DNA of 52,410 nt. It comes from Candidatus Dojkabacteria bacterium. Lineage in GTDB: Bacteria; Patescibacteriota; Dojkabacteria; SC72; JAHDCA01. The notes beneath the pieces are model-generated. The model saw nothing but the letters and a program-made list of their open reading frames with translations, searched no databases and was not told where the DNA came from. The stretch is taken from the NCBI GenBank assembly GCA_027036675.1, contig JALWDW010000008.1:1-52410 (forward strand). Reading direction: 5' to 3'. Made by a program: the position numbers and the translations under genes. Below are positions 11,332-36,619 of this stretch, in pieces. Positions within the stretch are counted from its first letter, which is position 1, and each line of letters begins with the position of its first letter.

Positions 11332-11869
11332 CATTCTAATTCCGATCGCAACAAGTCGGGGTTGAACCCCGGGCTTAAACCCCGGACTTGACAAAGGAAC
11401 CTTATCACCATGGGAATAATCACCAAGAAAATCTTGCGATTAATATTATTTTAATCGAAATTTAATGGCCAACTTACGTTGTCGTATAGGCGTTTACGAG
11501 TGCCCGTCGCTCTGGAGCGCGCATCCCGGGGACTCCGCGTATTCCTTGCAGACATGGCCTTTATCGATATTTTATAGCGACAGCGGACGATATAGCGTAC
11601 CTGAGTATAGGTGCAGAGCATGTTGACGTGTCATCGGTCGTATATTGAGAAAATGTCACTAAGAAAGCTCTGTCGCGACGCACAGTGTGCCGTGAGAACT
11701 GTAATTACGCGACATTTGTATATATCGTATACGCTCTATTTTGCATATTTGGCCGAGCCGAAATCTTGCCAACTATACCTACTACAACAGCGTTGCCACA
11801 CAATCAGTGGGTTCGAAGACCGGGTCGCAACCCCGACTTTGAATACCCGTTGCAATCGGAAATAGAATG
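11332..11869. repeat. element A: ~538-bp ORF-free structured intergenic element (candidate large ncRNA or MITE-like)
   Basis: 21-nt terminal inverted complement (19/21) plus an inner 11-nt perfect complement. Gap-free homology to 22289-22820. Confidence 0.7.
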
Positions 11870-11919
11870 TAGGAATTTGCGGTTCTGCACAACATTTGCG
11901 CAGGTTAAATCAATTTCAC

Positions 11920-18706: not shown

Positions 18707-19654
18707 AAATCATATTTGCCGTCTTTCCTGTCATGCGCGCTTATCGTAACATATTTCTCTGGGGAAGGGAAGAGGGCGGGGGGGGCGACCCCGGGCTTTG
18801 GTAGCATCCTTCGGGCGATAGGATGCGTACTACAGGTTGGTGGCGGTCTAATAGTTTGTTGGGCTGATGGTGTACTTACGGGCTTTGTACGAAGCCTGTA
18901 GCTTTTATTTCACAATTATTGCATGACTCGGCGAAGCCGAGTCATGCAGCCGCGAGTGCACCACTTCGGTAGAAAACGCCCAGAAGTCGGGGGTGAAGTG
19001 CTGCCGAAGAAAATTCGGCTGGCCAAAATATGGCGAAGTCATGGGACGTAGCTGCGTAGTTGAACACGATATCCCATACCTACAGGATAATACGAGACTT
19101 CGTTGATCGTTGCTGTCATGGGATCAGTACGTTTAGTGACAGGATATTTAAGGTAATCCGAGAAAGACAATGACAGACCCGGTTTACATCGTATCTTGCG
19201 TGTGTCCGTATTACCTCATACACAGCCATATCATGATATGGCGATAGTATCCGTGTCATGGGATTTACATGTCCCATCAAAGATTTTATGACGAAATGAC
19301 GTGTGATACCGCCCTTTTTCTTGGACAACAGGTGACATGACGATGATTACGAGTGAATCATGAATTTTGCATAACTAGGGGTGTTGCCATGGTGTTTCTT
19401 CTCTAAGGGTGGGACCCATGGTAGGACCGGAATCCCGGCGTCCATGTACGGCGCGTGTCCAATATACCGATGTACCGGAGTCTGCGCATATACGGGTGAG
19501 TAATGTACCATCAGGACCTTGGCTTGTCGCTGACGCGAATACTCTCGATCGTTTCACGGGGATTTGCGATAGACAATCCTGATCGTAGAGTCGGAGGCTT
19601 CACTGGGTGGGTAAGCGCGACTCCTGGCTGATGACATTAATCACAGGGAATGCC

Positions 19655-20215
19655 TCATTTGGTGATAAGCCGTAAAACTGTTTGTCTGTAAACGTCTGGA
19701 TCAATATGCGTAGTATTGACCGACCGGGCGGTCGCGAGAAAATCATGGGCGGTGATCAGCATAGTGGCCAAAGATACGGGGTCGATATCCACGAGCTCAC
19801 CAGCCTCAATCCCATCTTGGATGATATTCGCAACAAAACGGATATAATTGTTCAGATACTCAGTGGCTACCAGAGCGCGTATACTCTGGTGCGAATCATA
19901 AATCATGGCATATATGGCGGAGAACTCTTGTATCCCATCTGTCGGTTCGACGATGAGCTTCTCCAATTGTGCCAATGGCGATACAATATTGGCGATCAAT
20001 ACCTTGCTTCTGTCCAGCCGGTCCGCGGCGACATATCTGACAACCGAAATCATCAAGTCGTTTTTACTTGCAAAATAGGTATAAAAAGACCCTTTGCCGA
20101 TCCCAAGGACAGAACATAAACTCCGAACGGACAGGCGTTCAAGACCGTTTTGCATTATTAATTCGGTCGCTGTGTTTAGGAGCCCTTCCCTTGTAATCCT
20201 CTTTTTTTTGATCAT
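19655..20215 (-). CDS. TetR/AcrR-family transcriptional regulator
   Basis: N-terminal HTH (TREGLLNTATELIMQNGLERLSVRSLCSVLGIGKGSFYTYFASKNDL). ATG 20215 preferred over GTG 20224. Confidence 0.85.
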   Translation of the reverse strand: MIKKKRITREGLLNTATELIMQNGLERLSVRSLCSVLGIGKGSFYTYFASKNDLMISVVRYVAADRLDRSKVLIANIVSPLAQLEKLIVEPTDGIQEFSAIYAMIYDSHQSIRALVATEYLNNYIRFVANIIQDGIEAGELVDIDPVSLATMLITAHDFLATARSVNTTHIDPDVYRQTVLRLITK

Positions 20216-20239
20216 TGTGTACACGAATTATATTCACGG

Positions 20240-20255
20240 TTGACCGTGCGGTCAA
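20240..20255. promoter_or_regulatory. perfect palindrome TTGACCG-TG-CGGTCAA, candidate TetR operator
   Basis: 16-bp inverted repeat 25 nt upstream of the TetR ATG, in the divergent intergenic region. Confidence 0.45.
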
Positions 20256-20429
20256 GTATTTGAAGTATCTACCTGATAGCAGTCCAAATTTATATTAAAA
20301 TTTAAAATTCGGTTGTTTGTGATTTTAGAGTGTAGGCCGTGTTAGGTATGGGGTGATCGATATTGAATCCACAAGGATAATGAGACCTGACCGCATGGGC
20401 AGACAACGAATGCGGATAGAATATGTTTC

Positions 20430-20458
20430 TTGAGGAATCGCATATATCGTGCTATAAA
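20430..20458 (+). promoter_or_regulatory. sigma70-like promoter TTGAGG-17-TATAAA
   Basis: TTGAGG at 20430-20435 and TATAAA at 20453-20458, 8 nt before ATG 20467. Confidence 0.35.
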
Positions 20459-20466
20459 AGGAAGCT

Positions 20467-21039
20467 ATGAAATTCGTTTATCACGGTTCGCCTATGGGTG
20501 GGCTGAAACTAATTAAACCCAGGATGAGTACGCATGGCAAGGCGTATATATACGCCTTGCCTGAGAAAGCTGAAGTTGTGATGTTCTTTGGTCGCAATTA
20601 CGACCTGATTTGCTCGCAAGGGTGGTACCTTGACGTCCCTTATTTGTGGGAAAGGTTTGAAGGAGCTTTGGAATATGCGTATGGTGGTCAAAAAGGTTCA
20701 GTTTACACATTGCCTGCCGATACGTTTCATCCACTGCATGACAGGTTTGCGACTGACAAAGAAATGGTCTCCGAGGTGGCTGTCAAACCTGTGTCTGAAG
20801 AAGTCATAGATGATGCTTTGGTTGCTTTGCGGAATATGGCGAAAGAAAAAGAATTGCTTATTTTCAATTACCCGAATCGCCCTGATTTCCTGCCAGACAG
20901 GGGAAAGGATGACCTTATCCAAAAGACGATAATGTTTACCAATGGCGATGCAGACCATCCGGTGGTGGCCGATGTGCGTCAATTTCATCCTGATATATTG
21001 GACAGGGTGTTGGATGGTATCCGTGCCAAGCAAGATTGA
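20467..21039 (+). CDS. hypothetical protein (possible Arr-like ADP-ribosyltransferase fold, speculative)
   Basis: 190-aa ORF between TetR and MFS genes. FVYHGS...AYIYALPE...GSVYTLPAD spacing resembles the H-Y-D pattern of rifampin ADP-ribosyltransferases. This comes from my recall of that family only. Confidence 0.6.
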   Translation: MKFVYHGSPMGGLKLIKPRMSTHGKAYIYALPEKAEVVMFFGRNYDLICSQGWYLDVPYLWERFEGALEYAYGGQKGSVYTLPADTFHPLHDRFATDKEMVSEVAVKPVSEEVIDDALVALRNMAKEKELLIFNYPNRPDFLPDRGKDDLIQKTIMFTNGDADHPVVADVRQFHPDILDRVLDGIRAKQD

Positions 21040-21078: not shown

Positions 21079-22281
21079 ATGAGTATTCCGACATTTGGTA
21101 ATCGCAATATTATTATCTTCTATATCTTGACGGTCCTCAAGAATGCATGGTTTATCACCGGCAACTGGATTTTCTTCTGGTCGTTGTACATGACTTATGG
21201 GCAAATGGGGATCCTTGACACGATAGGGTTTCTTTTTGGCATGCTGATGGAGATCCCGACCGGTGGGTTGGCGGATATTATTGGTAGGAAACGAACTTTG
21301 CTTGTATCGTTTTTGTTGTCGGGGATGGGTATATTTGTCATGACGTTTGGCCACGCGTACGCGCCTATGTTTGCCGGGTTTTTGATAGCTCAACTCGGGT
21401 GGGCGCTTTATTCCGGCAGTGCGGAAGCTATGGCTTTTGACAGTCTGGTTGAAATAGATGAAGACAGTCATTTTGACAGGGTTATTTCGTTTGGCACGGC
21501 TTTGGGGGTTGTCGCCACCAGCGCTACGATCTTGGTCGGTACTTGGCTGTACAAATTGAGTCCGCCGTTGCCACATATAGCATGGGGCATGGCCAGCATT
21601 GTTGCACTGCCATTTGTATTCGCAATCAAGGAGCCTGGTGTACGAAGGGACGCTACCTTGGGATTCTCGATGAGACAATATTTGCACCAAATGAGCTTGG
21701 GCGCGAAAAGGCTTATGTCGTCGAGCTTGGTGCCGTATATCGCATTTATATTTACTTTGTCCGGCGCGATGTATATGTTTACCGAGAGTCTTACACGGCC
21801 GGCCGTATCGCTGGAATTGGGATTCGGTCCGACGGCGCAGGGGGTTATATTTACAGTTGCCGGACTGGTGGCGGTGGCGACTTCTCTTAGTGTGCCGTAT
21901 TTGAGAAAGTTTATGAGTGATTTTGTTGGTTTATCTTTGCTCAGCATGACTATGGCTGCAGTCTGGTTGCTGTTGTCTGTGAAGATCGGCGTTTGGGGTG
22001 CCATACCTATCGTGTTGGTTACAGCGGTTGGCAGTATTGGGGTTCCGTGGATATCTATAGCCATCAACAATGAAACTCCGGCCTCGCAGAGGGCCACCAC
22101 GTTGTCTACGGTTTCTTTCGTCGCTTTTATCCCGACCGCTCTGGTGGGGGTATTGGTCGGTCATTTGGCGCAACACGGCCATGTACGATATTTTACGTTT
22201 GCCGTGGCTTGTGTGATCTTTTTGTTGACAGTGGTGAATATGCTTCGGTTTAATACCTCCAGCGTAATTTCCTGGCAGTAA
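21079..22281 (+). CDS. MFS transporter
   Basis: 400 aa, about 12 TM helices. GGLADIIGRKRT motif A-like loop. Confidence 0.8.
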   Translation: MSIPTFGNRNIIIFYILTVLKNAWFITGNWIFFWSLYMTYGQMGILDTIGFLFGMLMEIPTGGLADIIGRKRTLLVSFLLSGMGIFVMTFGHAYAPMFAGFLIAQLGWALYSGSAEAMAFDSLVEIDEDSHFDRVISFGTALGVVATSATILVGTWLYKLSPPLPHIAWGMASIVALPFVFAIKEPGVRRDATLGFSMRQYLHQMSLGAKRLMSSSLVPYIAFIFTLSGAMYMFTESLTRPAVSLELGFGPTAQGVIFTVAGLVAVATSLSVPYLRKFMSDFVGLSLLSMTMAAVWLLLSVKIGVWGAIPIVLVTAVGSIGVPWISIAINNETPASQRATTLSTVSFVAFIPTALVGVLVGHLAQHGHVRYFTFAVACVIFLLTVVNMLRFNTSSVISWQ

Positions 22282-22288
22282 AGCCGAT

Positions 22289-22820
22289 CGCGATCGCTAC
22301 AAGTCGGGGATGAACCCCGGGCTTAAACCCCAGACTTGACATGGAAACCTTATCACCATGGGAATAACCGGCAAGAAAATCTTGCGGTTAATATTATTTT
22401 AATCGGAATTTAATGACCAACTTACTGTGTCGTATAAGCGCTTGTGAGTACCCGTCGCTCTGGAGCGCACATCCTGGGATCTCTGCGTATTCCTTGCAGG
22501 CACGGTTTTTATCGATACTTTGTAGATATGGTAGATGGAACGATGTACCTAAACATACGTACGGAGCGGGTTGCTGTGTTGTCTGCCGTATCTTGAGAAA
22601 ATGTCCCCGAAAAAGCGCCTTTTCAGCGTCTAATGTGCAGTGAGAGCAGTGACCACACGGTATTTGTATATGTCGTATAGGTTCTGTTTTGCACATTAAA
22701 ACTGGGTGACACTTTGTTGACCAGCTGCATTACAACAGCGTTTTCGCCCAATCAGTGGGTATGAAGATCGGGTCCCAACCCCGACGTTGCATGCTCCTTG
22801 CAATCGGAAATAGGATTTAC
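22289..22820. repeat. element B: second copy of the ~530-bp ORF-free element
   Basis: Aligns to 11341-11872 at a constant offset of 10,948 with no indels. Begins right after the MFS stop codon. Confidence 0.7.
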
Positions 22821-22892
22821 GATGTTTTTGTGTAATATAACTTTTATGATATAGTTCGTGTCATCTAAGCTCATATTCACAAAATCGGAGAA

Positions 22893-28814: not shown

Positions 28815-29648
28815 ATGAATTATGTAAAGGTGATATTGTTATTTTCGCTGTTGACTGTGCTTTTTGTGGCCGTGTCGTTTATTTTGCTGGGTCGCCAAGG
28901 TATGTGGTTTGGACTACTTTTCGCGGGGATTGTCAATTTTGTGTCATTCTTCTTCTCGGATAAAATCGCTTTGAAGATGGCTCATGCTCGTGCGTTATCT
29001 GAAGAGGAAAACCCGAAACTATACGAGATTGTCGGGCGATTGGCACGGCAAGCCGGTATCCCGATGCCGACACTGTACATGATCGACGATCCACGCCCAA
29101 ATGCTTTTGCGACAGGTAGGGGACCTGCGCATAGTGCGGTGGCGGTGACTAGGGGGTTGGTCGATTTGTTGGACGAGGATGAACTGTCCGCGGTACTGGG
29201 GCATGAATTGACTCACGTGAGATCCAGAGATATCTTGATCTCAAGCGTAGTCGCCACGGTTGCAAGTGCGATCACGATTGTCACACGCAATGCTTTGTGG
29301 CGGGGTAGGGGAGATAGAGATAATGATATTAACCCTATATTTACGATATTCATTTTATTGACCGCTCCACTACTGGCTTTGATGATCCAAATGGCAATAT
29401 CGCGTTCCAGAGAATTTCATGCGGATGCGGGTGGCGCGAAATTGGCGGGGAAGGAGGCGATGATCAGTGCTCTGTACAAGATAAATGGAGTATTGAAGCG
29501 CAACCCGATGAGGGATATCAATCCGGCACAGGCTCATATGTATATCGCAAATCCGCTTGGCGACGTCCGGTCCGTATTTGCGTCGTTGTTGGCGACACAT
29601 CCACCTCTTACCGCACGCGTCCGGGCTTTGGAGGAATTAAGCTTGTAG
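28815..29648 (+). CDS. htpX: zinc metalloprotease HtpX (M48)
   Basis: HELTHV zinc motif, downstream REFHAD, four TM segments. Confidence 0.9.
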   Translation: MNYVKVILLFSLLTVLFVAVSFILLGRQGMWFGLLFAGIVNFVSFFFSDKIALKMAHARALSEEENPKLYEIVGRLARQAGIPMPTLYMIDDPRPNAFATGRGPAHSAVAVTRGLVDLLDEDELSAVLGHELTHVRSRDILISSVVATVASAITIVTRNALWRGRGDRDNDINPIFTIFILLTAPLLALMIQMAISRSREFHADAGGAKLAGKEAMISALYKINGVLKRNPMRDINPAQAHMYIANPLGDVRSVFASLLATHPPLTARVRALEELSL

Positions 29649-30279
29649 CCGACAGGAGGTCGGGTCAAACTATTGAGTATTGGAAATGGTATGTACATGC
29701 CCCCAGGTTTTGGGATTTACTTCTTCGTCCTCGAATTGACCCTACGGTCGGGGAACTGCGCCTGAGGTATAAGATCTTATCTACTGTCGTAGTGGTCATC
29801 GATCTGTGTGGGTGCTAAATCTTCATTGGAAGATAGCCTATAGAAGAACGTTCTATCGAAGGAAACCTGAGGGGTAAAGCCATCTAGTGACCGAATGATC
29901 AGCTATAGGCCGTGTGTGAAAAACTAGTGACCAGGCGTTCAGTACGAGATTGGCAACTCCTGGAAGTCATACCCCGATAGTCAGTACGGTAACGACCGAG
30001 TGGTTAGTCCATGGTTGATGGTTTCCGGGGCTTATGCATGCAGCTGGTGTGCTGACGACCGGGTGGTCGTCTACGGTACTGTGCATACAAAACCTGCCGA
30101 CCGGGCGGTCAGGCGTAGTGACTGCTGGTGAGTACGAATCTCTGCGAATACGCTGTTTGCGAGCGACCGTGCGTTCACGGTATTCGCTACTTAAAATGGG
30201 ATCCCGATAGTATGGTCGATACAGCGATTCGACATGCTCGTAGTAGTATAAAGCTAAAGTGGCCTAGGTGAGACAACCG
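29649..30279. other. 631-bp ORF-free hairpin-dense spacer between convergent htpX and helD
   Basis: No ORF of 60 aa or more. At least seven GACC-N4-GGTC-like stem-loops and an 8-bp stem (30144-30151 with 30180-30187). Confidence 0.6.
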
Positions 30280-32484
30280 CTATTTTCCGACGATAAACAG
30301 CCGGTGCAGAGCTCTTGTCATGGCGACGTACAATAAGCGTTGCGAGTACTCATCCCGCCCGTAGGTCGGTTCGTCTACGTCTATGATGAACACACTGTCA
30401 AATTCAAGCCCCTTGGCTTTGGCAACCGGTAATACGAGAACCCCGGTCGAGTGGTTGTCGTCCGATTCGGTATGCAATTTTCTGGTAAAAAGGTTTTTGT
30501 GTTTTACCAAACGTTGATGGACCTTGCGAAAATGGGTGAGATCTCTGGTAATGATGCCGACCGTGGACGCGCCTTTGTCAAATTGTTCGTTCACTTTGCG
30601 GATTATATCTTTGATTGTTTGTTCATCAGCGTCGTCGAATGTTGCACCGATTGATATGGTCTCGACCGGATCGCCATGCCTGAGTACAGCTTCCGGCGGG
30701 TTCAAGCCTTTTGGCATGAAATCGGTGAGGAGGGTATTCGTATAGTCAATGATCTCCACCGTAGTGCGGTAAGACTTATTCAACTGTGTGTAAATAGTAT
30801 CACCTCCCGTCTCTTTGCGCAGTATCTCGACCACATCCTGCCAATCCTTGATATAAAACGGGGGGATGATCGCTTGCGCCAAGTCACCAGCCAGCATCAA
30901 GTTGTTGCGTCCGGCCAGTTTGGCTATGGTCAGCAATTGAGCGATACTGTAGTCTTGCGCCTCGTCTACCATGATCACATCCTTTACATACTCTCGGTAT
31001 CCGTACAAGGACATGGACAACTCAAGCAATAAAGGTATATCTTCCTGCTTATGGAACTGCACATTACCCGTCATATTGAAATATGATTTGGTAAATGCTT
31101 CTATATTCCTCATCGTGGCGGTAGGAATCCCTTCCGATTCAAACGCTTCGTGATCTTTTAGCAACGCCATATACATATTGCGCAACCTCAATCGCTTCTT
31201 GATCAACTTTAGTACCTTTGCTTCCTTATCTTTGATATTACGCAACTGTCCCATATAGTCTCCGGCGACACCCATGTTTTGCTCCTTTTGATTGAAAGCG
31301 TATCTGACCGCCAATTCCAGGCTCTCGTAAATATCGATATCTGAATGATTGTTTCTGAGCTCCTCGTAACGGGATGTGACTACCCATTTGACTGACTCGG
31401 ACAGTTCGTCAAGTATTTGTTCGACGTATCTGGCGAACGCTTTGCGAATACCGCGATAAAAGGCGTACGATCCTTTGATTGACTTAATCTCCAAATTGTC
31501 TGGCGTATCGCTGAGTACGTGCCTGTCGTCCCATTTGAGTACTTTCTTGGCAAGAGACATATATACGTCCGTTTGTGTGCCAAAGATTCCCAGGTTTGGC
31601 AAGAGTTCGGAAATATAATCTATAAACATTTTGTTTGGAGCCAGAACCAATGCTTTGTTCATCGATATTTTGGACTCCTGCGAATAAGCGAGGTATGCCA
31701 GGCGGTGGAGAAGGATCGTCGTCTTGCCAGAACCGGCGACCCCTTGAAGGATAATCGGTCTGTCGATCTGTGCGCGTATAATTTCGTTTTGCGTTTTTTG
31801 AATTGTGGAAACTATATCCACCAGTTTTTTCCCGCTACGACCTGAGAGCTCATGCAAAAGAAACTCATCGGCGCTTGAATTCCCACTTTTGATGTCATAG
31901 ATGTTTTGGAAACGTCCCAACACGATCTCAAACTGTCTCTTCTGCGTCAAATCTCCTGTGATCTTGCCGGCCGGGCTTGTGAAATCGACATTTTCAGTTG
32001 GACCAGAGTGTTGATAGTACAGGTTGGCGATAGGTGCACGCCAATCCGTGATCAGAGGCACCCCAGTGCTAGGATCAATCATAGCAAATTTGCCGATATA
32101 TACTTTGACAGGTTTTGAGGTTTTGTGATTTTTGAATACGATCTTGCCAAAGTAGGGTTTTTTAATGATCGTCAAATCATGATTCAGATCCTTGACGTAC
32201 TTTCGCATGCGTTTCAACAATTTATTGTAGGTTTTGACGGCATCTTCTCTGTCGTCTCCTGTCTCGTGTTCCATCGCGAAGATAGCATCCTCCATCTCCA
32301 CGAGCAAGCTCGCTCTGCGTGCATCTATATCCTTGATCTGTCCATGGATCAGCTCTATGGCACGCAATAAGTGAGGGTATTCTTCCTCTTCCACACTGTC
32401 TTTGGGTACGACATCGTCGTTTGAAACTATCTGCGGCAATTGTTCATATACCGGCAGGATGTACTCTTGATAATCGATGGGCAT
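30280..32484 (-). CDS. helD: HelD-type UvrD/Rep-family helicase (RNA polymerase recycling ATPase)
   Basis: KPYFGKIVF...VYIGKFAMI...ITDWRAPIANLYY N-terminal signature, then IVSTIQKTQNEIIR and Walker A ILQGVAGSGKTT. Length and layout match HelD. Confidence 0.85.
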   Translation of the reverse strand: MPIDYQEYILPVYEQLPQIVSNDDVVPKDSVEEEEYPHLLRAIELIHGQIKDIDARRASLLVEMEDAIFAMEHETGDDREDAVKTYNKLLKRMRKYVKDLNHDLTIIKKPYFGKIVFKNHKTSKPVKVYIGKFAMIDPSTGVPLITDWRAPIANLYYQHSGPTENVDFTSPAGKITGDLTQKRQFEIVLGRFQNIYDIKSGNSSADEFLLHELSGRSGKKLVDIVSTIQKTQNEIIRAQIDRPIILQGVAGSGKTTILLHRLAYLAYSQESKISMNKALVLAPNKMFIDYISELLPNLGIFGTQTDVYMSLAKKVLKWDDRHVLSDTPDNLEIKSIKGSYAFYRGIRKAFARYVEQILDELSESVKWVVTSRYEELRNNHSDIDIYESLELAVRYAFNQKEQNMGVAGDYMGQLRNIKDKEAKVLKLIKKRLRLRNMYMALLKDHEAFESEGIPTATMRNIEAFTKSYFNMTGNVQFHKQEDIPLLLELSMSLYGYREYVKDVIMVDEAQDYSIAQLLTIAKLAGRNNLMLAGDLAQAIIPPFYIKDWQDVVEILRKETGGDTIYTQLNKSYRTTVEIIDYTNTLLTDFMPKGLNPPEAVLRHGDPVETISIGATFDDADEQTIKDIIRKVNEQFDKGASTVGIITRDLTHFRKVHQRLVKHKNLFTRKLHTESDDNHSTGVLVLPVAKAKGLEFDSVFIIDVDEPTYGRDEYSQRLLYVAMTRALHRLFIVGK

Positions 32485-32491
32485 CCGCGCA

Positions 32492-33580
32492 TTATATCAC
32501 TACACCGCTTCCGTAGCAACGTTTGTCGTCGTAAATCGCCAAAGTTTGGCCCGATGCGACAGCGCAGTGAGGTTCAGAATGTGATATCGTGACCGTATGG
32601 TCAGAATTGTCGTATGAGATTGATTTGACCTGCACCATATCGCCCCGATGCCTGATACGAGTGTATAGGTCTGATCGTCCGCTCAAAGTCTCGATGGAGA
32701 TATCATTACCTATCAAGTTGAGATTGCTTATCGATATTTTTGTTTTATACAAAAGCGGGTTGTCGTGTCCTTGACAGGCGTATACCGTATTGTGTTCCGC
32801 ATCTTTGGCGCATACGTAATAAGGTGTCGATACTCCTCCTATGTCGAGCCCGTGGCGTTGCCCGATAGTTATGGACCAAACCCCTTGATGTTTCCCGAGA
32901 ACTCGACCGGTTTCCATATCCACGATATTACCGGTGTTGTCGCCTATCGCGTCCCGCAGGTACTCGCGTACGTTTATCTTACCGACAAAGCAAATGCCCT
33001 GACTGTCTTTTTTAGTGGCGTTTGGCAAGTTGATCGAATCGGCGATCTCCCTCACTTCCTGTTTGGTAATATTGCTTAATGGGAATACGACATCATATAG
33101 TTGCTCTGTTTTCAAGGCGGATAAGAAATATGTTTGATCCTTGCCGATGTCTGCCGACAAAAGGAGTTGGGCACCGCTACGTTCGTCGTGCAAAACCCCG
33201 GCATAATGCCCGGTAGCGACTTTGTCCGCCCCAAGGTCGAGCGATTTTTGTTTAAATACTCCAAATTTGATGTCACTATTGCACAATACATCGGGATTTG
33301 GTGTCAGCCCTGCTTTGTACGCTTCCACAAACGGCCTCATGACCGATTCCATATAATTATCCACAAAGTCCATGACCATAAACTCTATACCCAAGCTGTG
33401 AGCGACGGCCTCGGCTGAGTCCCGGTCGACCTTTTGCGTGCATTCGGGGTCTTTGCCGTCAGAACCTGCCCAATTGCGCATAAACACACCCACGACCTTG
33501 TACCCGGCTTGCAATAATAGGTATGCGCCGACCGCGCTGTCCACTCCGCCGGACAAGCCCAAAAATACCGTTTCCTTCAT
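32492..33580 (-). CDS. mnmA: tRNA 2-thiouridine(34) synthase
   Basis: PP-loop GLSGGVDSAV, catalytic Cys contexts (PDVLCN, SQGICFVG). Confidence 0.9.
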   Translation of the reverse strand: MKETVFLGLSGGVDSAVGAYLLLQAGYKVVGVFMRNWAGSDGKDPECTQKVDRDSAEAVAHSLGIEFMVMDFVDNYMESVMRPFVEAYKAGLTPNPDVLCNSDIKFGVFKQKSLDLGADKVATGHYAGVLHDERSGAQLLLSADIGKDQTYFLSALKTEQLYDVVFPLSNITKQEVREIADSINLPNATKKDSQGICFVGKINVREYLRDAIGDNTGNIVDMETGRVLGKHQGVWSITIGQRHGLDIGGVSTPYYVCAKDAEHNTVYACQGHDNPLLYKTKISISNLNLIGNDISIETLSGRSDLYTRIRHRGDMVQVKSISYDNSDHTVTISHSEPHCAVASGQTLAIYDDKRCYGSGVVI

Positions 33581-35134: not shown

Positions 35135-35787
35135 CAAAACAGCCTATAGCGCTACCTAGCAATCGAAGCCGGGGTTGGACCCCAGGCTTGAACCCCGGGC
35201 TTGATGTGAAGGTATTGTTATCGTGAGAATGAAGGGTAGAAAAACAGGATTTTCAGGGGCTTGGCTATAGAAATTGTACAATCGGTTTATATTGTCACAC
35301 CAATCTTTTCAACGCCCTACCACACCGAAGTGAGTGATTTCCCATGACTACAAGGTTTATCCCAGGTTTCAATAGTTTTCCGCTCCCGTAGCGGGTAAGC
35401 CTATGTTTTTTTACATAGTCAAAGTAAGACATAATGACATTGTCCAATGACAACGGGTGTTTTACTTGGGTATGGAGTATTGCGATAACCGCTTTATTTA
35501 TATCTGAGGCTTCGTAAGTCCTACGAGAGGAATTTCGGTAATACTATTTTTTATCTAACAGTCCGGGGGATGCTTTTCTATATAGATGAAAACTTAATGA
35601 AAACTTCACATCCGATGTGAAGTATCAGCAGTGGCACCGCATCCGCAATCGTGGTAGCGACTGTGGGTGCGGTCTTAATGAAAACTTAGTCCTCGTTCCC
35701 CGCCGGGTCGTGAGTTGCCAGTGCTTGAATGTTGCCGGCGGGGCTCGCGATTGCTACTGCAGATGAAAATTTAATGAAAATTTCACG

Positions 35788-35932
35788 TCGGCTGGGGCGC
35801 CCATTATCCGAGGACCTTGACCTGTGGCGTGAGTAGAGCTTTTGTGGGTCCGCGGACTGGTTCCGTTGAGGAAGGTTTCCTTCGCGGATGAAGATTTAAA
35901 GCCTCCGGCGTAATTCCCCGACCGTAAGGTCG
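35788..35932 (+). repeat. 145-bp direct repeat, copy 1
   Basis: Identical to 36178-36322 except at 3 positions. Confidence 0.9.
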
Positions 35933-36177
35933 ATTGGGGATGAAGTAGCTCCCAAATCGTCAGGACGATGTGCTGAAGGTTGCTCAGCGGATTGCAGTAT
36001 GTCGATTTACCTGTGTGTAATGTATGTATGTTGTACTCGAAGCTACGGCATGATATGCGTTGAGAATAAATTTACATTCGGCAGTATTTTGGACGTTGAC
36101 GATATTCGAAAGATTTGGGACAAACGAAGTTTGTAAAGTCGATACCCCGACCGGCAGGTCGTGGGAGAGGCTTCATC

Positions 36178-36322
36178 TCGGCTGGGGCGCCCATTATCCG
36201 AGGACCTTGACCTGTGGCGTGAGTAGAGCTTTTGTGGGTCCGCGGACTGGTTCCGTTGAGGAAGGTTTCCTTCGCGGATGAAGATTTAACGCCTCCGGCG
36301 TAATCCCACGACCGTAAGGTCG
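36178..36322 (+). repeat. 145-bp direct repeat, copy 2
   Basis: Same as copy 1, 390 bp downstream. Differences are A/C, T/C and C/A near the 3' end. Confidence 0.9.
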
Positions 36323-36619
36323 GGGGACTGTAGTTGCGACCGCAGGTTGAAGCACGTCCTTCAATAATAGGCTCTGTCATTGGGATAAACCAATACAGGT
36401 AAGACAGTGTATTGCCATCAACTCCCGTCCATCCGGTATCGGTTGGGCGACTCCTCAAAGCCCACTGTCATTGTACAGAAGGTGTATTTGCCTACGTCCA
36501 GCCTTTTTGAGCCATCACCGGAAATCACGAATTCCGGGCCATGCAGCCTGTGGCCACAGTGCTTTGTCTCAAAGGGTGGGTTCCCATCCCGGGGTCGAGG
36601 CCAGGCTTCGCATTCCTTA

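Follow-up and report, generated by a model that had tools for sequence, protein, structure and literature searches.

Repetitive extragenic palindromic (REP) elements, REPIN doublets and bacterial interspersed mosaic elements (BIMEs) are short, imperfect hairpin palindromes of ~20–40 nt, which occur in many dispersed, mostly extragenic copies limited to one lineage and cluster between gene ends (PMC3116915, PMC3337134). Palindromes of a different kind, the operators of the TetR-family regulator RutR, are bound at many sites away from promoters, mostly inside genes (PMC2475637). Here we describe a 52,410-nt stretch of DNA from a Candidatus Dojkabacteria bacterium (contig JALWDW010000008.1; hereafter the window) and, within it, the 631-bp spacer at positions 29649–30279 that separates the convergent genes htpX and helD. 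The spacer carries serial hairpins with the stem GACC-N4-GGTC, together with copies of a dispersed hairpin module that is similar to the REP, REPIN and BIME families in its short, imperfect palindromes, in what appear to be many, mostly extragenic copies within one lineage, and in its clustering between gene ends.

In the preliminary description of this DNA, the hairpins were taken to indicate an independent structured RNA gene, an array of protein-binding palindromes or a decayed repeat element. Taken together, these three interpretations are partly supported, and the decayed repeat element is the best supported of them: a clear, if diverged, copy of the module lies in the spacer, along with at least one more that has decayed. 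All the motifs listed there were confirmed at their coordinates. The region had also been recognised as an ORF-free gap between two convergent genes, and this was borne out. The spacer has no open reading frame (ORF) of 60 aa or more, the longest being 58 aa, and is flanked by genes for an M48/HtpX peptidase on the left (28815–29648, plus strand) and a HelD-type UvrD-family helicase on the right (30280–32484, minus strand), assigned by Pfam and NCBIfam profiles. The best NCBIfam matches are HtpX (E = 4e-90) and HelD_BACSU (E = 4e-85), both under the curated cut-offs. Convergent gene pairs elsewhere in the window are separated by gaps of mostly 0–114 bp, with one of 277 bp, which makes the 631-bp spacer an outlier.

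Enriched palindromes and a dispersed hairpin module

The palindromes exceed the shuffle expectation. Compared with 2000 dinucleotide-preserving shuffles of the spacer itself, TGACCNNNNGGTCA (TGACC-N4-GGTCA) is found at four sites in 631 bp when up to one mismatch is allowed (0.019 expected), and at eight sites with up to two mismatches (0.28 expected; shuffle maximum 3). The hairpin units have stems of 4–7 bp and loops of 4 nt. The motif belongs to the genome and not to the spacer alone. Exact GACC-N4-GGTC occurs nine times in the 52-kb window (19722, 20242, 29738, 30057, 30099, 32591, 35920, 36149 and 36310), where 0.5–0.6 occurrences are expected, and the excess of GACC/GGTC pairs is seen at a spacing of 4 only, the remaining spacings from 0 to 11 giving 0–2. 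Seven of the nine sites are intergenic. The other two, 19722 in the TetR gene and 32591 in mnmA, are inside ORFs but no more than 33 codons from the stop codons, and therefore also lie at gene ends.

Sequence comparison within the window links the spacer to a module of ~65 nt, with the consensus ..CCTCnGGCGnAnTTCCCCGACC-GTAR-GGTC.., which is a hairpin with a conserved 5′ flank; the module hairpin reads CCCCGACC-GTAA-GGTCG(N)GGGG. The minus strand of 29709–29778 aligns with 35891–35956 over 70 nt at 74% identity (BLAST, E = 4.6e-8). Exact blocks of 11 and 12 nt (29816–29826 and 29857–29868) continue colinearly beyond this alignment, for which the Smith–Waterman z-score is 19.7. The diverged copy thus delimited spans 29709–29868 on the minus strand, with its core at 29716–29772 and the hairpin CCCCGACC-GTAG-GGTC, and the same strand is also homologous to the module at 36281–36321. 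A covariance model (R1) built from four copies, of which the spacer copy is one, scores the latter at 48.1 bits. The model also finds 22251–22300, where the 5′ flank is kept and the stem sequence is different, which suggests that the hairpin weighs more than its sequence. When the 26-nt module core was scanned by Hamming distance, 11 matches were obtained at the level of 9 mismatches in 26, against 1.45 expected.

Within this diverged copy, the segment 29762–29737 (minus strand) differs from the module core at 4 of 26 positions. About 200 nt away lies a weak inverted arm, the decayed copy GAAGTCATACCCCGATAGTCAGTACG at 29963–29988 (plus strand, inverted relative to the 29716–29772 copy), which differs at 9 of 26; a 15-nt stretch of this copy is 93% identical to 36136–36150 (BLAST). 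A decayed module hairpin, TCCCGATAGTATGGTCG, is present at 30202–30218 (plus strand) and agrees with the module hairpin at 13 of 17 positions in a hand alignment. This remnant (CCCGATAGTATGGTCG at 30202) has a weak match to 35917–35934 (18 nt, 83% identity, E = 1.8) and explains the recurrence of CCCGATAGT. The preliminary description had listed two copies of that sequence, at 29973 and 30202; the pair appears to be meaningful, since both look like decayed versions of the module hairpin CCCGACCGT.

The module is multi-copy in the source metagenome: the summed contig depth reaches 269 at 35912–35942, against a baseline of 10–13, and there are three points, 35895, 35932 and 35961, beyond which many contigs no longer follow the reference and have unrelated flanks. 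From these similarities, at least the left third of the spacer and parts of the rest appear to originate from a lineage-specific dispersed hairpin repeat.

Hairpins are also found at the two gene ends. Directly 3′ of the htpX stop codon, CCGAC-AGGAG-GTCGG (29649–29663, plus strand) was read in the sequence, and a consensus scan identified a terminator-like hairpin, CCCAGGTTTTGGG, with a T-rich tail (29702–29725, plus strand), which is a candidate htpX transcript end; its match is a weak one, at the level that shuffled sequences give. For helD, the scan identified the terminator-like hairpin CTGACCGCCCGGTCGG followed by CAGGTTTTGT (30087–30112, minus strand), a candidate terminator 167 nt past the stop codon with a 7-bp stem that includes one G-U pair. 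The two hairpins face outward from their genes, at 29702–29714 (plus strand) after htpX and at 30112–30097 (minus strand), followed by a U run, after helD. Both combine a G+C-rich stem with a U tract at a gene end, as intrinsic terminators do, a count of 2 that does not stand out from the 1.0 expected in shuffles.

The explanation we favour, tentatively and with slightly less than even confidence, is that the spacer is a REP/REPIN- or BIME-like pile-up combined with the terminal hairpins of two genes. It would then be a composite and not a single gene. Both htpX and helD would end in it, with one hairpin apiece that may stop or protect the transcript, and between and around these ends would lie decayed copies of a lineage-specific dispersed hairpin repeat with the stem GACC-N4-GGTC. 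Such repeats would pile up in the ‘safe’ gap between converging genes. The six palindromes in the right-hand part of the spacer would descend from the module family or from local duplication of one unit, and the present role of the hairpins would be to end and insulate two convergent transcripts, not to encode an RNA.

These six right-hand palindromes, all on the plus strand between 29888 and 30177, are TGACCGAATGATCA (29888–29901), TGACCAGGCGTTCA (29928–29941; one mismatch, with the same 5′ flank, CTAG, as the 29888 site), CGACCGAGTGGTTA (29993–30006), the perfect 7-bp stem GACGACC-GGGT-GGTCGTC (30054–30071), a site at 30098 and CGACCGTGCGTTCA (30164–30177). They are spaced by 40, 65, 63, 42 and 66 nt. 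All six have the same orientation and a common CT flank and are degenerate in the right half only; the centre is G-N-G-Y, with each G in five of six and the Y in all, and the half-site is GACCG in five of six. It is the common orientation, the CT flank and the G-N-G-Y centre that suggest descent from one unit. The first palindrome is enclosed, together with the 10-bp palindrome AGAACGTTCT (29845–29854), by the inverted repeat GCCTATAG...CTATAGGC (29836–29910), and the last by the 8-bp stem GCGAATAC/GTATTCGC (30144–30187). An internal duplication of 168–171 nt (29888/29928/29993 versus 30056/30098/30164) has suggestive spacing and was rejected, as the alignment is non-significant (z = 2.9) and covers the hairpin only. 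A CRISPR array was likewise rejected: no tandem repeat was detected, and the units share just a 14-nt core at irregular spacings.

Several observations weigh against the favoured explanation. The contigs that carry the multi-copy module may come from more than one genome, a search of the metagenome at ≥80% identity finds the spacer itself in single copy, and the six right-hand palindromes have no extended flank in common with the module. No REP-associated tyrosine transposase (RAYT) or IS200/605-type transposase was found among the ~26 of ~50 long ORFs of the window that were scanned with Pfam. At a TetR promoter, a textbook operator is built from palindromes of this class. Finally, the core of the spacer (29747–30061) diverges at about one-fifth of the rate of synonymous sites or of the flanking parts of the spacer, and plain junk should not stay so conserved, unless a recent recombination tract homogenised the core.

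Strain variation and the conserved core

Variation was assessed at the strain level, from haplotypes in vent metagenomes, with the window and haplotype X7 as the main pair. For helD, this pair gives proportions of synonymous and nonsynonymous differences of pS = 0.085 and pN = 0.009. The strain-conserved central core, 29747–30061, differs by 5 single-nucleotide polymorphisms (SNPs) in 315 nt (1.6%), against 7–8% for the flanks of the spacer and 8.2% for the TetR locus. The left flank (29649–29746) has 7 changes in 98 nt, a near-neutral rate, and the 3′ untranslated stretch of helD (30062–30279, minus strand) is hypervariable, with 15–18 SNPs in 218 nt and a 3-nt deletion in X7. All haplotypes are free of SNPs over 29937–30061, where the sole change is a 1-nt insertion in X5. 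Conservation in the middle of the spacer is close to that of coding DNA and the flanks drift neutrally, a pattern that may reflect either constraint or a recent recombination tract. The second is possible for the core because recombination acts nearby. In haplotype X3/L083 the flanking htpX and helD genes are ~99.9% identical to the window, yet 30085–30277 (193 nt) contains 20 SNPs, as if a short tract of the helD 3′ untranslated region had been exchanged by recombination or were a hot spot of mutation.

According to the preliminary description, a spacer that is highly variable or absent in close relatives would speak against its readings. Checked among strains, the spacer is kept with small indels, and one variant contig, from X8, departs from it at 29714. 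This 285-nt contig follows the htpX 3′ end to that point and then continues with TGACCGAACGGTCGCGATCCTGGTACGTGG, which is absent from the window; the variant sequence begins TGACCGAACGGTCG and runs TGACCGAACGGTCGCG... The contig represents a structural variant of the left part of the spacer, and possibly an empty site for module insertion.

Changes within the palindromes fall mostly in the central 4 nt. The 29888 site is a perfect palindrome, TGACCGAATGGTCA, in haplotypes X5, X6, X7 and X9 (SNP 29898 A>G), the 29993 site is identical in all haplotypes seen, and the sole strain change in the 30054–30071 stem is in its loop (30062 G>A). In X6, X7 and X8, the changes 30166 A>G, 30167 C>T and 30177 A>G abolish the 30164 palindrome, and X3 has damage to the 30098 palindrome as well as an altered stem and tail of the candidate helD terminator. 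Of the three exact GACC-N4-GGTC sequences in or adjoining the terminator-like elements of the spacer, two vary between strains. This variation and the loss of the 30164 palindrome, like the X8 variant, count in favour of the repeat pile-up.

One way to account for the conserved core is that ~29730–30090 encodes an independent, unclassified non-coding RNA, with the GACC-N4-GGTC units as its hairpins, situated between the terminators of both genes. The core is ~5 times less diverged than neutral sites, 125 nt of it are free of SNPs in every haplotype, and it sits between outward-facing terminator-like hairpins, all of which would suit such a gene. Strain changes in the hairpins are mostly in loops (29742, 29935, 30062, 30103, 30105), and 29837 C>T preserves a G-U pair on the plus strand, although the G-U evidence favours neither strand consistently. 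Searches with Rfam 15 at the gathering score returned only four tRNAs in the whole window; at E ≤ 10 there was no match over 29500–30450, and the spacer contains no tRNA or tmRNA. Fold z-scores for the whole spacer, the core and eight sub-blocks on both strands range from −0.2 to −1.5 and give no signal. The only local fold with a z-score near −2 is the inverted repeat at 29836–29910, with −2.4 and −2.0 on the two strands, and this similarity between strands points to a DNA palindrome. No sigma-70-like promoter was found in 29400–30500, and a search for RNA runs that contain the locus returned none. The earlier suggestion of a structured RNA gene therefore retains the strain-conserved core in its favour but gains nothing from family matches, folding or promoter, and we consider an RNA gene unlikely.

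Far less probable still is that a protein-coding gene has died here and left the spacer behind, or that the spacer hides a gene for a small protein. Its 631 bp are within the range of small genes and several ORFs of 40–58 aa are present, but a Pfam search of all six frames, translated through the stop codons, gave no match at E ≤ 10, and five SNPs lie within the first 25 nt of a 39-aa ORF. The TTG start at 29673 is lost in X7, and the 1-nt insertion of X5 causes a frameshift at 30040. Together, this insertion and the lost start codon argue against a protein and leave a function at the level of RNA or DNA, in which respect they count for the RNA gene.

Other candidate functions were considered and rejected. 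GC skew is positive throughout the window with no switch, as opposed to what a replication origin or terminus would give, and the palindrome ATAAGATCTTAT presumably has the wrong spacing for a dif site. For a CRISPR, retron or diversity-generating retroelement, no regular repeats were found, and no reverse transcriptase or Cas genes are nearby among the scanned ORFs.

Palindromes at the TetR locus and upstream of helD

Related palindromes are located at a TetR-family regulator gene (19655–20224, minus strand). A perfect 16-bp palindrome, TTGACCGTGCGGTCAA (20240–20255), overlaps the −35 box of a sigma-70-like promoter (11 of 12 positions) that leads into this gene. A second site, with one mismatch, is found 147 nt away at 20388–20401, beside a divergent major facilitator superfamily (MFS) transporter gene in the TetR/DUF/MFS intergenic region. 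The 20240–20255 palindrome is a probable autoregulatory operator with a RutR-like architecture. The G-N-G-Y centre and GACCG half-site of the right-hand spacer palindromes are also found in the sites of this locus. A further perfect palindrome, GTGACCGTATGGTCAG (32589–32604), lies within the 3′ end of mnmA. Downstream of it, in the direction of helD, follow a promoter-like site, TTGCTA-17-TATAAT (10 of 12 positions; 32519–32491, minus strand), after ~75 nt and the helD start codon after 106 nt. The X7 form of the spacer site at 29887/29888 matches GTGACCGTATGGTCAG at 15 of 16 positions.

The spacer palindromes could therefore be read as a cluster of binding sites for this TetR protein, or for another dimeric regulator, with a predicted operator TTGACCG-NN-CGGTCAA (7-2-7). 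An array of this kind could serve as a decoy, could insulate the convergent genes from each other or be a roadblock between them, or could control helD together with the site upstream of that gene. The two sites at the TetR locus, with TTGACCGTGCGGTCAA on the −35 box, have a classic autoregulatory layout, and helD has a perfect site upstream whose near-twin is in the spacer. Four sites lie within the conserved core. Centres and flanks of spacer sites also recur at the TetR locus: CCGACCGGGCGGTC is found without change at both 19720 and 30097, and GACCGTGCG is common to 20242 and 30165. RutR binds TTGACCAnnTGGTCAA, in many cases outside promoters (PMC2475637), and ranks high among the NCBIfam matches of the window's TetR protein, although far under the cut-off.

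The spacer sites themselves, however, match just 8–10 of the 12 half-site positions. The six right-hand sites are asymmetric one way, with GACC always intact and the right half degenerate; this fits common descent better than dimer binding, and looks more like the former than like independent selection for the latter. The spacer contains no promoter, and some strains have lost the integrity of two of its sites. Helical phasing is marginal (Rayleigh p ~0.06 for six sites and 0.18 with a seventh, in our own calculation from the coordinates). The dispersed module carries the GACC-N4-GGTC core in at least 20 copies, so the resemblance to an operator may be inherited from the repeat. The TetR gene is 8.2% diverged between strains, and no TetR homologue was found at E ≤ 1e-10 for footprinting. 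An operator cluster in the spacer thus seems improbable.

Over the TetR locus as a whole (19600–20480; 881 nt), the window and X7 differ by 72 SNPs and 2 indels, ~3 times the per-nucleotide divergence of helD; the regulator may be evolving fast or be under relaxed constraint. Between the gene and tRNA-Thr, 950 nt (18707–19654) contain no convincing ORF and are single copy in the metagenome. This region has only chance-level Rfam matches and a strong hairpin, GCATGACTCGGC GAA GCCGAGTCATGC, at ~18930–18958.

More broadly, it is conceivable but doubtful that the core at 29747–30061, insulated by the terminators of the two genes, is a functional element of a new kind, either an unclassified non-coding RNA made from repeat-derived hairpins or a nucleoprotein array on TetR-type operators. 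In the second case, the array and the twin palindrome upstream of helD would together bracket and control the RNA-polymerase-recycling factor HelD.

Other repeats, host lineage and known systems

The favoured repeat pile-up is set in a window that holds further repeats. A separate 535-nt non-coding family has copies at 11343–11880 and 22291–22825, 84% identical, with terminal inverted repeats CAAGTCGGGGTTG.../...CAACCCCGACTT. It fills two further long intergenic gaps, reaches a metagenome depth of 100–300 against 10, has no Rfam match and looks like a family of miniature inverted-repeat transposable elements (MITEs).

The non-coding block at 35169–36608 (1.45 kb), between a divergent hypothetical gene and proS, is a repeat mosaic. 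Three module hairpins lie in it, as do four copies of ATGAAAAYTTAATGAAAAYTT and a 151-nt duplication (35782–35932 and 36172–36322, 97% identical). At its ends the block is similar to the terminal inverted repeats that mark the 535-nt family. Parts of the block reach 5–25 times the baseline metagenome depth, and strain X6 lacks the 390 nt between the two 151-nt units. One module hairpin in this block (35918–35971) gave a match to the group II intron family RF02001 (group-II-D1D4-3) that, at 17.2 bits, stays under the gathering score of 32 (E = 1.1) and has 121 model positions deleted. A group II intron was rejected because this match is probably chance, although the GNRA hairpin followed by GAAG at this place resembles an intron domain fragment.

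In the contig of the closest relative (L167), ProRS is 75% identical and the gene order is the same, and the gap upstream of proS measures only 151 nt, compared with 1553 nt in the window. It follows that long gaps in this lineage are recent repeat insertions. The module has no match in the L167 contig, which breaks off at the stop codon of mnmA and so narrowly misses helD. ProRS is placed near Dojkabacteria/Microgenomates within Patescibacteria. Its best named matches are to Patescibacteria (Dojkabacteria, WWE3, Roizmanbacteria) at 57–64% identity, the best overall being at 75%, and HtpX has no relative above 53% identity (GTDB genomes, JGI metagenomes; 5.8 billion proteins). On these placements, the window appears to come from a sparsely sampled lineage of the candidate phyla radiation (CPR) in hydrothermal-vent metagenomes. 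Pattern scans of viral contigs gave nothing relevant.

The finding is real but mostly ordinary. What makes it of interest is the host, the conserved core and a stem that is common to a selfish repeat and a regulator's operator. The genomes of CPR bacteria are small, with densely packed genes. In this 52-kb stretch, several intergenic gaps have been enlarged to 0.6–1.5 kb by dispersed non-coding repeats of at least two families, which would make it a useful case of selfish DNA persisting in reduced genomes. There is also a lesson for annotation: serial hairpins should be checked against the dispersed repeats of the genome before they are called an RNA gene.

With respect to known systems, the spacer has the G+C-rich hairpins at both gene ends that characterise Rho-independent, including bidirectional, terminators, and the one at 30112–30097 (minus strand) is followed by a U run. 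Two terminators, however, need ~100 bp and not 631 bp, and most of the spacer hairpins lack U tracts. Like MITEs, of which the 535-nt family is an example, the spacer repeats are non-coding, multi-copy, lineage-specific insertions that enlarge intergenic gaps; in contrast to them, the spacer ends without terminal inverted repeats or a target-site duplication, and it has no sequence in common with the 535-nt family. The 16-bp palindrome of the TetR locus shares with RutR operators (PMC2475637) the 7-2-7 architecture and the outer half-sites TTGACC/GGTCAA. The spacer copies differ from these operators in being degenerate (8–10 of 12 positions), asymmetric and clustered eight-fold in a 3′ intergenic gap, and the local TetR, whose binding is predicted, is no RutR orthologue (33 bits against a cut-off of 368).

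The REP, REPIN and BIME families differ from the repeats described here in their hosts: ours is a CPR bacterium, and the literature searched contained no account of REP families in the CPR. They also differ in arrangement: REPs alternate in orientation within BIMEs, whereas the right-hand palindromes of the spacer are all in direct orientation. The inverted pair at 29762–29737 (minus strand) and 29963–29988 (plus strand) recalls a REPIN doublet, albeit one with its arms ~200 nt apart and one of them badly decayed.

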